64,000 nt of DNA, taken from assembly GCA_021162845.1 (NCBI GenBank), contig JAGGXX010000054.1, positions 4,537 through 68,536 of the forward strand. Reading direction: 5' to 3'. The translations under genes were made by a program, and so were the position numbers. Positions 4,800 through 8,444 of this stretch are shown here, piece by piece (the first letter of the stretch is position 1; each line of letters begins with the position of its first letter). A model generated the notes under the pieces. The model was not told where the DNA came from. It did not search any database and saw only the letters and a list, made by a program, of their open reading frames with translations. The DNA is from Thermoprotei archaeon (GTDB lineage: Archaea > Thermoproteota > Thermoprotei > QMSL01 > B3-G16).

Positions 4800-6635
4800 T
4801 TAATCATCTTGCTTCACCCTTACCCGAAGGCTAGGCGTTATTAGGGCCTCGCCCATCTGGGTCATGTATAGTTTGTAGTATGTTCCTTTTCTCGCCATTA
4901 GTTCCTCATGAGTACCCTCCTCAACAACCCTACCACCCTCCAAAACAACAATCCTATCCGCGATGCGGGCCATGGATAACCTATGGGCTATGATTATCGT
5001 GGTCCGTCCAGCCATGAGCTGAGAAAGGGCTCGCTCGATCAGGATCTCAGTATAGGGATCGACGCTGTACATCGCCTCATCAAGTATCAGTATCGGCGGA
5101 TCACGGATCATGCAGCGGGCGATGGATATAAGCTGTTTCTGACCTGTGGAAAGGCCGATGCCTTGCTCGCCTACTTGCGTCTCGTAACCATTAGGTAGGC
5201 GGGATATGAACTCGTGTATTCCGAGCTTCCTGCATACCTCTTCGACTTCTTCGTCTGTTGCATCAGGCCTTCCGATCCTTATATTCTCCCTCACAGTTCC
5301 CGGGAACAGGAATGTTTCTTGGGGGACGAAGCCTATCTGCCTACGGAGGGATCTCTGGGTTATCTTACGTATATCAAGCCCATCTAGGAGTATCCTGCCC
5401 CTAGTGACGTCATAGAAACGCGCTATGAGGCTTACTAGTGTGGTCTTACCAGCTCCTGTAGGGCCTACTATCGCTATCCGCTCACCTGGCCTTATGTGAA
5501 GGCATACATCCCTTAGTACCGGTTGACCTGGTTCGTACTCGAAGTACACGTGATCGAGCACTATCTCACCGCGTGCTCTAGATACCTCTATAGCTCCTGG
5601 CGCGTCCTTTATCTCAGGCTCAACATCTAGTAGGTAGAATACCCTGCTAGCAGCGGCTAAGGCCCCCTGTAGTGAATCATAAAAGCCCATTAAGGTCATT
5701 ATGGGCCTGAAGAAGAAGTTCACGTAGGAAGTGAATGCGACTAATACACCTATCGTAACTCCACCTACGGAGGCTAGATATCCACCGTACCATAGGACTA
5801 TGGTGGATCCCAGGGAGAAGACTATGGGTAATAGGAAGAAGAATATCGTGACCACTTTAACAGCCCGCATGCTGGCTTCAAACGTCTCATGGCTTACCTT
5901 TTGAAAAGCCCTGACGGCGTCTTCTTCCCTTGTATATGCTTGTATCACCCTGACACCAGACACTATCTCCTGAACCCTAGTACTTACATCGGAGATCTTT
6001 TGCCTTACCTGAAGATAGGCCCTCTTAAGGGGACCCCCGAATATGTACGCGATGAGAACTAATAGCGGGATCACAGAGAGAGTGACCAGGGTTAACTGGA
6101 CGCTCATGGCAAACATGGCTGCTATCACTCCTACGAGCGTAAGCGTATCACCTAATAGGGAGAGAAAGCCCCAGACGAACGTGTCTCGAAGGGTGCTAAC
6201 GTCGTTCACTATCCTGGAGATTATGTCGCCAGCTCTCGTCTTACTGAAGAAGGACGTGGATAGATCCTGTATGTGGTTAAATACCTTTTCCCTTAACTTG
6301 TAGACGAATTTATTGCCTATTAGGCCTACTAGATAAGACCTACCCACCATCGTAGCCCATCCTATGACGACTAGCCCCAGATATAGGGCGAATATCCCTA
6401 AGAGTCCATGTAGGTTCCCTTTGACGACGTAATCGTCTATGGCGCTTTTGAGCACTATCGGGCTAGCTAAGTTGGTGAGAGTATTCACTATTACTAGGAC
6501 TACCAGCACCAACATATGTAGCTTAAAAGGTGCTAAAAAGCCGAAGAGCCTCTTTACAACTAGGCGCGTGGGTATCTTAAGCTCAGATGCTTTGCCTTCA
6601 AGAGGTGAGGGGGATGGATGATGATGGGGCCTCAT
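4800..6635 (-). CDS. ABC exporter, fused permease/ATPase subunit (type I exporter, MsbA-like); consensus-like NBD
   Basis: Six-TM N-terminal region, then an NBD with Walker A [9 protein letters not shown], signature LSTGQKQ, Walker B ILILDEA and H-loop IIIAHRLS. Confidence 0.8.
   Translation of the reverse strand: [611 protein letters not shown]
4865..4958. repeat. 94-bp segment identical to 6692..6785 (3' coding ends of the two ABC paralogs)
   Basis: Base-by-base comparison by eye: tgtatagtttgtagtatgttccttttctcgccattagttcctcatgagtaccctcctcaacaaccctaccaccctccaaaacaacaatcctatc is identical in both copies. It encodes the same 31-32 aa ([31 protein letters not shown]) in both proteins. Confidence 0.85.
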
Positions 6636-6641
6636 TTCTCA

Positions 6642-8444
6642 TCACTCCCGAGCTATAGCCATAAGTGCCTCTTGTGGCTCGAACAAGCTCTTGTATAGTT
6701 TGTAGTATGTTCCTTTTCTCGCCATTAGTTCCTCATGAGTACCCTCCTCAACAACCCTACCACCCTCCAAAACAACAATCCTATCTGCTGTCTTGATGAG
6801 AGGAAGTCTCTGTGTTATTATTATCGTGGTCCTGCCCTCCATCAATTTCTTAAGATCCTCCACGATCTCTCTTTCCGTTTCCGCGTCTAAATTCGAGGTA
6901 GGGTCATCAAGTATCAGTATCTTGGGGTCAGCAAGCACGGCCCTAGCTATGTCCACCCTTTGTCTCTGTCCCCCAGAGAGGGTTACGCCTCGTTCTCCTA
7001 CGAGCGTGTCATAGCCCTTAGGTAAAGATACTATGAAGTCGTGAAGTCGCGCCATCTTAGCAGCGCGTATTATTTCCTCCATGGAGGCATCAGGCTTGCT
7101 GAGGGCTATGTTCTCCTTTATCGTTCCAGCGAAGATGAACGGCTCCTGCGATACTATCGCTATCTGCCTCCTAAGGGATTTCAGTTTTACGTCGCGTACA
7201 TCGTATCCGTCTATTAGTATCCTCCCCTTGGTGACATCATAGAAGCGTGGTATCAGGCGTATAAGCGTGCTTTTGCCTGAACCGGTTAGTCCTACGATAG
7301 CTACTCGCTCGCCGGGCTTTATCTCTAAGTTTATATCCTTCAGTACGAGGTGCTCCTTATCATAGCCAAAGGACACGTCTTCGAATTTTATGTAGCCCTT
7401 GATGGGGGGTAGTTCTATAGCATCGGGCTTCTCCTTTACTTCAGGGACTGCAGTGAGTATTTCAAATATGCGTTGTGCAGCAGTCATGGCCCTTTGGAAT
7501 GTAGTTATGAACATCGCTAGGCCTCGAGTCGGCCACATTAACATGCCTAAGTAGCTTATGAATGCCATTAACCCGCCTATGGTAAAGGATCCAGCTATCA
7601 CGTATATGGCTCCGACGTATAATACGACTGCCGTACTAGCGCCTATGATGAGCATGCTAAGGGGACCGTAAATCGCATCAACCCTAACGGCTTTAAGCGC
7701 TAGACTCAGGAATTCATCATTCGCCTTCTTGAATTTCTTGCGTTCATAATCTTCTATTCCAAGGGCTTTGACAGTCCTTATCCCCGTTACGTTCTGTTCG
7801 ATGACCGAGGTCAACACGCCTATTTGATGCCTTAACATGAGATATAGTGGGCGTATGACCGAGCCATATCTATAATAAGTAAGGAATATGAGCGGTAGGG
7901 CGGGAAGCGCTACTAGCGAAAGTTTAACGTTCATTCTCAACATCATGTTCAATGCGAGGACTATCAGCATTATGGATCTTACGGTATTAGTGAAGGGTCT
8001 TAGGAGGAAGCGCGCAAGGACTTCCGTATCATTCGAAATCCTGGATATGAGCTGACCTGTGGACATTCGATCGAAGAAGGCGAAGGATTGCCGTTGTAGT
8101 GCCTTAAAGCTATCCACCTGAAGATTATAGACCAGTTTTCGGGAAAAGTAGCCCCCAGCATACCTCTGGAGCGCCATGAAAACCCCTGAAGCCAGCGAAA
8201 TGCCTAGGAGTAACAATGAGAGAGGGGTTATCAGTTCGTAGTGACGCCCTATGATGGCACGATCTATAATGTCCTTCCCTATGGCGGGTGTTAACACTTG
8301 AAGCTGTGATGAGATTATTACACACACTAACATTAAAGCCAAGCTCATCCAATTACGAGCGACATATGGCATGAGCTTTAGGAATATCCTGAGGCTTTCC
8401 CTCAGAGGAAGGATCTTAACGGGTTTCTCATTCACACTTAGCAC
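6642..8444 (-). CDS. ABC exporter, fused permease/ATPase subunit, partner with degenerate NBD (heterodimeric exporter)
   Basis: Walker A [9 protein letters not shown], signature LSGGQRQ. Walker B reads ILILDDP, so the catalytic Glu is replaced by Asp. The H-loop reads IIITQRL, so His is replaced by Gln. The start is 7 nt downstream of the first ABC gene. Confidence 0.8.
   Translation of the reverse strand: [600 protein letters not shown]
6692..6785. repeat. second copy of the 94-bp identical segment (see 4865..4958)
   Basis: Same as above. Confidence 0.85.

Follow-up and report, generated by a model that had tools for sequence, protein, structure and literature searches.

The window analysed here is a stretch of 64,000 nucleotides (nt) from contig JAGGXX010000054.1 of a Thermoprotei archaeon, and the feature under study is a 94-nt block that two adjacent genes of this window share without a single mismatch. 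Both genes, named A and B, encode half-transporters of the ATP-binding cassette (ABC) type and lie in tandem on the minus strand. The genes, the two copies of the block (each located by repeat search and by exact pattern search) and the short tails that follow them are placed as follows, all positions being those of the window.

4800..6635, minus strand: gene A, ABC half-transporter (transmembrane domain plus nucleotide-binding domain, NBD) of 611 amino acids (aa); the downstream gene, in the role of TM288
6642..8444, minus strand: gene B, ABC half-transporter of 600 aa; the upstream gene, in the role of TM287
4865..4958, minus strand: block copy 1, inside gene A (downstream), made up of codons D560-Y590 and 1 further nt
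6692..6785, minus strand: block copy 2, inside gene B (upstream), made up of codons D554-Y584 and 1 further nt
4803..4864, minus strand: unconverted, subunit-specific C-terminal tail of A, setting the 3' limit of the tract
6645..6691, minus strand: unconverted, subunit-specific C-terminal tail of B, setting the 3' limit of the tract

An earlier note on this DNA had described 94 bp of perfect identity between otherwise diverged adjacent ABC paralogs, and this description is borne out. Exact pattern search retrieved the sequence GATAGGATT...AAACTATACA in both genes with 0 mismatches (94/94), while no third copy was found in the window and no match in 100 shuffled sequences; when the copies are extended to 100 nt, 2 positions differ. 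The block is also the sole direct or inverted repeat of at least 30 nt across the whole window. The codon frame is common to its two copies. Each of them starts at a codon boundary, 1677 nt (gene A) or 1659 nt (gene B) from the gene start, and they end 62 and 47 nt, respectively, before the stop codon. The encoded identical run spans residues A559-Y590 in gene A and A553-Y584 in gene B, in agreement with the claim of the same note that the C-terminal 32 aa are homogenised.

Outside the block, genes A and B share 40% of their protein residues, 0.52 of their nucleotides and 0.39 of their third codon positions, the latter value being close to saturation. The next longest identical run measures 18 nt, and the edges of the block are sharp, the flanking codons falling at once to ~40% identity; alignment of the two genes thus confines the identity to a sharply bounded block. 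Upon 5000 shuffles of the matched and mismatched sites, the longest run had a mean of 10-13 nt and a maximum of 22-26 nt, against the 94 nt observed, and the run of identical third positions reached at most 16, against 34 observed. The shared block is therefore confirmed as real and far beyond chance.

Relatives of the same immediate clade were then explored for the homologous segment. Four of them, L087 (with orthologs 62% identical), L089, L090 and L186, carry no block, their longest shared runs being of 12-19 nt. In the homologous 31 codons, their paralogs show third-position identities of 0.35-0.45 (0.45 in L186), equal to those of the rest of the NBD even where 81% of the amino acids are identical. 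Wider controls were provided by 121 other tandem ABC pairs, 54 from reference genomes and 67 from metagenomes; a profile scan with an 18-sequence alignment returned, among the matches listed, distant relatives only (35-44% identity), none of them of the close clade, and these were reused as controls. Their longest shared runs were of 10-20 nt in the reference-genome pairs and of 9-27 nt in the metagenome pairs, with a run above 27 nt in 0 of the 121. For the 89 control pairs whose segment was cleanly extracted, nucleotide identity was 0.58 +/- 0.06, with a maximum of 0.74, and third-position identity 0.41 +/- 0.11; even at 0.74 identity per site, a 94-nt run has a probability of about 5e-13.

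Blocks at the homologous place are found, on the contrary, in three of the seven immediate-clade lineages sampled. Besides that of the window, which is common to a sister strain differing by 1.4% (L001, an ENA assembly with 98.6% nucleotide identity to the window over 11.6 kb and both genes present), a second species is represented by four independent assemblies (L003-L006), with the same synteny and A orthologs 66% identical to that of the window. All 4/4 assemblies show a perfect block of 68 nt in both genes. It matches the window block at 61/68 nt, its first 27 nt being identical, and each of the 7 differences is common to both paralogs, as are the two amino-acid changes relative to the window, Arg-to-Lys and Thr-to-Leu. 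L212 and L088, 99.6% identical to each other, make up the third lineage, in which the A orthologs have 54% identity to that of the window; L212 displays a perfect block of 105 nt that differs from the window block at 17/94 positions, these differences being again common to both paralogs.

The L088 tract was also considered as one broken by an indel, a reading discarded upon comparison with L212, which places the insertions in the L088 copies and gives 105 nt for the intact tract. These insertions, of 5 nt in the B copy and 2 nt in the A copy (L088:2930-2967 and 4735-4770; cf. L212:2850-2954 and 4654-4758), lie in the CTATAC-rich 3' part of the block, and each of them shifts the frame and shortens the C-terminal tail. 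They could be errors of sequencing or assembly, the assembly being an old one, or else both copies may truly have mutated by slippage.

A neighbour-joining tree of the non-block columns, computed without bootstrap, splits all A genes from all B genes, and because of this separation the duplication predates all sampled lineages. While the rest of the gene groups by orthology, the block groups by genome, A being equal to B in the window, in L003 and in L212. On the 3' side, all three tracts end inside an interval of about 5 nt, where the A-type and B-type tails lose homology, and their 5' limits fall within 11 codons, at R557, D560 and G568 (numbering of the window A protein). Moreover, a stretch of 24 nt that lies upstream of the L003 tract, and is part of the converted block in the window, shows 16/24 identical positions between the L003 paralogs. 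Since the 5' limits differ and these 24 nt remain diverged in L003, the tracts cannot all be unaltered copies of a single ancestral one, and each lineage must have undergone one conversion or more. The overall pattern is one of concerted evolution, requiring at least three separate conversion events in three lineages. The orthologous pairs give no sign of passive silent-site conservation of one same block, since the three blocks are lineage-specific and four relatives lack any. Thus, of the "recent" conversion invoked by the earlier note, the conversion stands and the single isolated event does not: the spot is recurrently converted, possibly long-lived, with at least three events in three lineages.

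Regarding the proteins themselves, that of gene A is identical to NCBI MCD6510371.1, from a metagenome-assembled genome (MAG) of a Thermoprotei archaeon. Both A and B match ABCB/MsbA-type fused permease-ATPase models of NCBIfam, all below the equivalog cut-offs, and the Pfam domains ABC_membrane (PF00664) and ABC_tran (PF00005) are found on both genes of the 98.6%-identical L001 locus, consistent with a predicted fold of six long helices followed by the NBD. Among prokaryotic solved structures, the best matches are TM287/288 and TmrAB (A versus TM288, E=1e-133; B versus TM288, 1.7e-118; B versus TM287, 2.7e-109). More distant ABC homologs, of about 52% identity, occur in Methanomethylicia and Culexarchaeia-type MAGs. 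Several bacterial homologs (P0003, P0004, P0006-P0008 and P0010) are about 900-1050 aa long and give high scores against the 611-aa query together with many extra P-loop Pfam matches; they may be fused or extended ABC exporters, or read-through gene calls. A Walker A motif of 9 residues is present in each of the two window genes, and the remaining NBD motifs are located as follows.

5139-5153, minus strand: signature motif of gene A, LSTGQ, non-canonical
5073-5093, minus strand: Walker B of gene A, ILILDEA, catalytic Glu present
4977-4994, minus strand: H-loop of gene A, IIAHRL
6966-6980, minus strand: signature motif of gene B, LSGGQ, canonical
6900-6920, minus strand: Walker B of gene B, ILILDDP, Asp replacing the catalytic Glu
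6804-6821, minus strand: H-loop of gene B, IITQRL, Gln replacing His

Each ATP site of an ABC transporter is formed by the Walker A, Walker B and H-loop that one NBD contributes, together with the signature of the other. Because the site is composite in this way, the deviations of A (signature) and of B (Walker B and H-loop) fall on one and the same ATP site, and this pattern of a degenerate site is kept in the orthologs. A and B are accordingly predicted to encode a heterodimeric exporter of the TM287/288 type with one degenerate ATP site, and the A/B heterodimer would export a substrate. Both TM287/288 of Thermotoga maritima (PDB 3QF4) and TmrAB of Thermus thermophilus (5MKK) are heterodimeric type I exporters with one degenerate ATP site, and they share with the pair described here the architecture, the gene order, an upstream subunit with Asp in Walker B and Gln in the H-loop, and a downstream subunit with a deviant signature; they differ in that the host is here an archaeon and in that identity is only about 35-40%. 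The pairing of a Glu-to-Asp change with a deviating H-loop in degenerate sites has been described, with TM287/288 and TmrAB as examples (PMC7756269). The earlier note had counted the Walker and signature motifs among the diverged parts of the pair; divergent they are, although their differences, like that of the H-loop, most probably reflect the functional asymmetry of the heterodimer and not mere drift, the tract ending just before it would reach them.

The position of the block within the NBD was carefully compared with the degree of differentiation between the subunits. Considering only pairs without conversion, A-type and B-type residues differ least, over all 31-column stretches of the NBD, at the block: the Jensen-Shannon divergence (JSD) is 0.13 there, whereas the NBD as a whole averages 0.23. 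The minimum lies at columns 644-646, and column 646 is the first of the block. Just upstream, the H-loop columns (His versus Gln) reach 0.7, Walker B and the signature, further upstream, reach 0.8-0.9, and divergent, non-homologous tails follow downstream. In the unconverted relatives the segment is also among the stretches with the highest nucleotide similarity between the paralogs (0.61-0.71; rank 1 in L089 and rank 2 in L087), Walker A being comparable. In the AlphaFold model, two beta-strands (561-566 and 569-574) and a short helix (576-582) fall within the block, which also reaches into the beginning of the terminal helix (585-598); the predicted local distance difference test (pLDDT) score is about 86-90. 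GC content at third codon positions (GC3) is 0.39 in the segment (window 4866-4958) versus 0.54 in the gene; likewise, when the corresponding codons of L003, L087 and L088 are included, in GC-richer genomes, converted or not, it is 0.35-0.45 in the segment versus 0.47-0.68 in the rest of the genes.

The block is best understood as the footprint of ectopic, that is inter-paralog, gene conversion between tandem co-oriented genes for ABC exporter subunits, a process recurrent in this clade, to which a probability of roughly 85% is assigned. Selection on the protein fails to account for the identity, as does a nucleotide element, and conversion accounts for it; inter-paralog conversion, the cause already put forward in the earlier note, is backed by the sharp edges, the identity at silent sites, the lineage-specific blocks and their absence in four relatives. 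An ancient duplication would have given rise to A and B before the sampled lineages diverged, and homologous recombination would then have overwritten the last conserved part of the NBD (beta-hairpin, short helix and first part of the terminal helix) in one gene with the sequence of its partner. This conversion would have been repeated, so that the window, the species with 66% identical orthologs and the lineage with 54% identical ones carry tracts of their own (94, 68 and 105 nt). The segment may be the one stretch where the subunits are interchangeable and at the same time homologous enough to recombine, and a perfect tract, once in place, may be the preferred substrate for further recombination, leading to self-perpetuating homogenisation in this clade. 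Such a self-reinforcing substrate would explain both the clustering in one clade and the absence from the 121 other pairs. Tracts extending further upstream would overwrite the His/Gln difference of the H-loop, the Glu/Asp difference of Walker B and those of the signature, and they would be purged by selection, while the downstream limit would be set by the non-homologous tails; the block as such would be without function. Within this explanation, self-perpetuation and confinement by selection are put forward as plausible.

Several observations weigh against this explanation. The 94/94 identity of the present assembly is a value taken from assembled sequence, the corresponding value in the sister strain being 96/97. 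Third-position similarity between the window and L003 is 0.71 in the block (31 codons) versus about 0.40 elsewhere in the genes, which counts against it because plain neutral concerted evolution does not predict such a rise. This similarity derives in part from a codon preference of the whole segment, seen also in the unconverted L087, and it suggests that the segment is under such a local preference or under another, only partly explained, weak constraint. When scored with A-versus-B profiles, the block has a log-odds of +1.3, which falls below the lowest A-class value (+2.6) and above the highest B-class value (-0.7). Finally, with seven immediate-clade lineages and an unsupported neighbour-joining tree, a single origin with maintenance and one or more losses, that in L087 included, is not separable from independent origins. 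A single long-lived conversion hot spot, dating from the common ancestor of these Thermoproteota lineages, kept homogenised by self-reinforcing recombination and fenced by selection for the asymmetry of the ATP sites, is offered as a tentative and rather doubtful extension. The direction of transfer, when called from the A-type and B-type position-specific profiles, turned out ambiguous, and that call was set aside; relative to the nearest unconverted relative, the block amino acids are identical to the B copy at 27/31 positions and to the A copy at 23/31, a weak lean towards B as the donor and A as the recipient.

Alternative origins of the identity must be weighed against conversion. Since the window stems from a metagenome-assembled genome, a short repeat might have been collapsed, or a consensus copied from one gene to the other, during assembly or polishing. 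The sister strain bears directly on this. It is available as L001 and, from a different sample, as L002, a Joint Genome Institute (JGI) assembly that holds gene A with copy A only. Copy A reads GGC in both L001 and L002, and copy B of L001, like both window copies, reads GGT; copy B of L001 also has GCG in place of GCA at the 5' edge of the block. As L001 tells the copies apart by a single nucleotide polymorphism in an independent assembly, two physically distinct copies exist and no collapse took place. The block is thus reproduced from different samples and through different pipelines, by L001 with both copies and by L002 with copy A; own blocks, in addition, occur in four assemblies of the second species and in two of the third. 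Contigs of the ENA assembly bear the prefix k141_, presumably a MEGAHIT name implying a k-mer of 141 nt, longer than the 94-nt block. On the other side, the 5.2-kb contig of L002 begins at the equivalent of window position 6689 (minus strand), 2 nt past the 3' edge of the block in gene B, and holds none of the copy of that gene. This start is suggestive, and only that, of a contig break related to the repeat; its use as proof of assembly trouble was dropped, since L002 is the only contig starting near the block and does so outside it. The warning of the earlier note about misassembly at this repeat thus finds weak backing in one contig, and its check for an artefact comes out in favour of a real block. 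An assembly or binning artefact is taken as scarcely credible.

Scarcely more can be said for a replacement of the 3' end of one gene, either through a partial duplication of recent date or through a fragment gained by lateral transfer, to which an equally minimal probability is given. The two related species do co-occur in samples ERZ27248349 and JGI 3300021472, and their blocks are fairly similar (the 61/68 nt given above), but the perfect match of the block is with the partner gene of its own genome and not with any foreign sequence found, its flanks are strictly orthologous and syntenic, and the tract lies in register without an insertion scar. Lateral import was also considered on the grounds of the low GC3 and the likeness to the AT-rich L003 species, and was rejected, since GC3 falls locally in the same way in L087, which is unconverted, and in the GC-rich L088, the low GC3 belonging to the segment in all lineages. 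A functional nucleotide element kept in both genes by purifying selection, be it an RNA structure, a target of small or antisense RNA or a protein-binding DNA site, would account for the identical silent sites, for the first 27 nt shared between the L003 tract and the window, and for the somewhat raised third-position similarity between species. Nevertheless, the blocks of the three lineages differ mutually at 7-17 positions, the low GC3 and codon preference of the segment appear also in the unconverted L087, no Rfam family matches the block region, and no RNA fold signal relative to shuffles was detected on either strand in any lineage (z-scores of -1.47, +0.65, +0.27 and -0.08). Because four close relatives show ordinary silent-site divergence between their paralogs in this very segment (0.35-0.45), such an element appears largely refuted and very improbable. 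More deserving of attention, yet still unlikely, is adaptive homogenisation, in which conversion is the mechanism and the identity of the subunits is itself favoured, for a symmetric partner surface or for co-folding, so that the tract persists in deep lineages. The same place of the tract in three lineages whose orthologs are only 54-66% identical, and block amino-acid changes that are always common to both subunits, agree with it. Shared changes, however, follow automatically from conversion, the location in the least subunit-specific segment of the NBD fits neutrality equally well, and L087, L089, L090, L186 and the 121 more distant pairs function without identity there. Nor do we know of any partner for the C-terminal segment of the NBD.

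Recurrent inter-paralog conversion, as favoured here, belongs to a known process, concerted evolution by gene conversion, and calls for no new mechanism and no new class of element. The tufA/tufB genes of enterobacteria reportedly evolve in concert, as Abdulkarim and Hughes are said to have described in 1996 and Lathe and Bork in 2001. Gene conversion is also said to occur between the genes for subunits of the archaeal thermosome, a group II chaperonin, in work ascribed to Archibald and Roger in 2002. As in the present case, the thermosome involves archaeal paralogs for different subunits of one hetero-oligomer, and its conversion is partial, recurrent across several lineages and biased to the conserved nucleotide-binding region; on the contrary, the protein family is another one, the thermosome genes are generally not adjacent, and their tract boundaries are less sharply shared. 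In prokaryotes, 26 genes with recurrent and sometimes very long-lasting concerted evolution by gene conversion have been compiled, including the tandem mtrA-1/mtrA-2 of methanogens (PMC6053082). ABC exporter pairs are absent from that survey, in whose main text "ABC" and "transporter" each appear 0 times. What the window pair has in common with tufA/tufB and the genes surveyed is a closer resemblance among the paralogs of one genome than among orthologs from different genomes, together with recurrent conversion across lineages and homogenised silent sites. Those cases, nonetheless, homogenise essentially whole genes of near-identical function, whereas only 68-105 nt (23-35 codons) are affected here, in paralogs that are adjacent, otherwise 40% identical and functionally differentiated, and at a location that is shared and sharply defined.

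The locus thus provides a well-controlled archaeal example of partial, recurrent conversion between adjacent subunit paralogs in which, unusually, converted and unconverted sister lineages can be compared. For ABC biology, it would single out the ~30 residues that follow the H-loop as the part of the NBD in which an exchange between catalytic and degenerate subunits is tolerated. If the single old hot spot were true, concerted evolution would have acted below the gene level and over a long time on functionally differentiated subunits of one machine, and the tract could serve as a natural map of the interchangeable part of an asymmetric ABC NBD. In practical terms, an identical patch of 70-105 nt can mislead phylogenies, ortholog assignment and short-read assemblies of such pairs, and a subunit gene could be deleted or duplicated by way of this direct repeat, whose copies are separated by 1.8 kb.

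Some further features of the window are worth recording. Immediately upstream of the ABC pair, and in the same orientation, lie a DUF4432 gene and an AP_endonuc_2 gene (xylose-isomerase-like TIM barrel) at window 8551-10533 on the minus strand, an arrangement repeated in the 66%-identity species (L003:1105-3083). The neighbourhood also comprises, on one side, genes for an Fe-dependent repressor and FeoAB and, on the other, genes for MgtE and a PhoU/TrkA_C protein, and its conservation might give a hint of what is exported, or of an operon. A gene for an MtrH-family methyltransferase is found some 3 kb away from the ABC pair, at window 660-1661 on the plus strand (L001:9976-10884); considering this gene and the nearest distant ABC homologs, the lineage may be a methyl-utilising relative of Methanomethylicia or Culexarchaeia-type groups. 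A tRNA of ~97-100 nt lies at window 40536-40635 on the plus strand (Rfam tRNA, 47 bits), reported by ARAGORN as "tRNA-???" with a 4-base anticodon, and is presumably an archaeal intron-containing tRNA.

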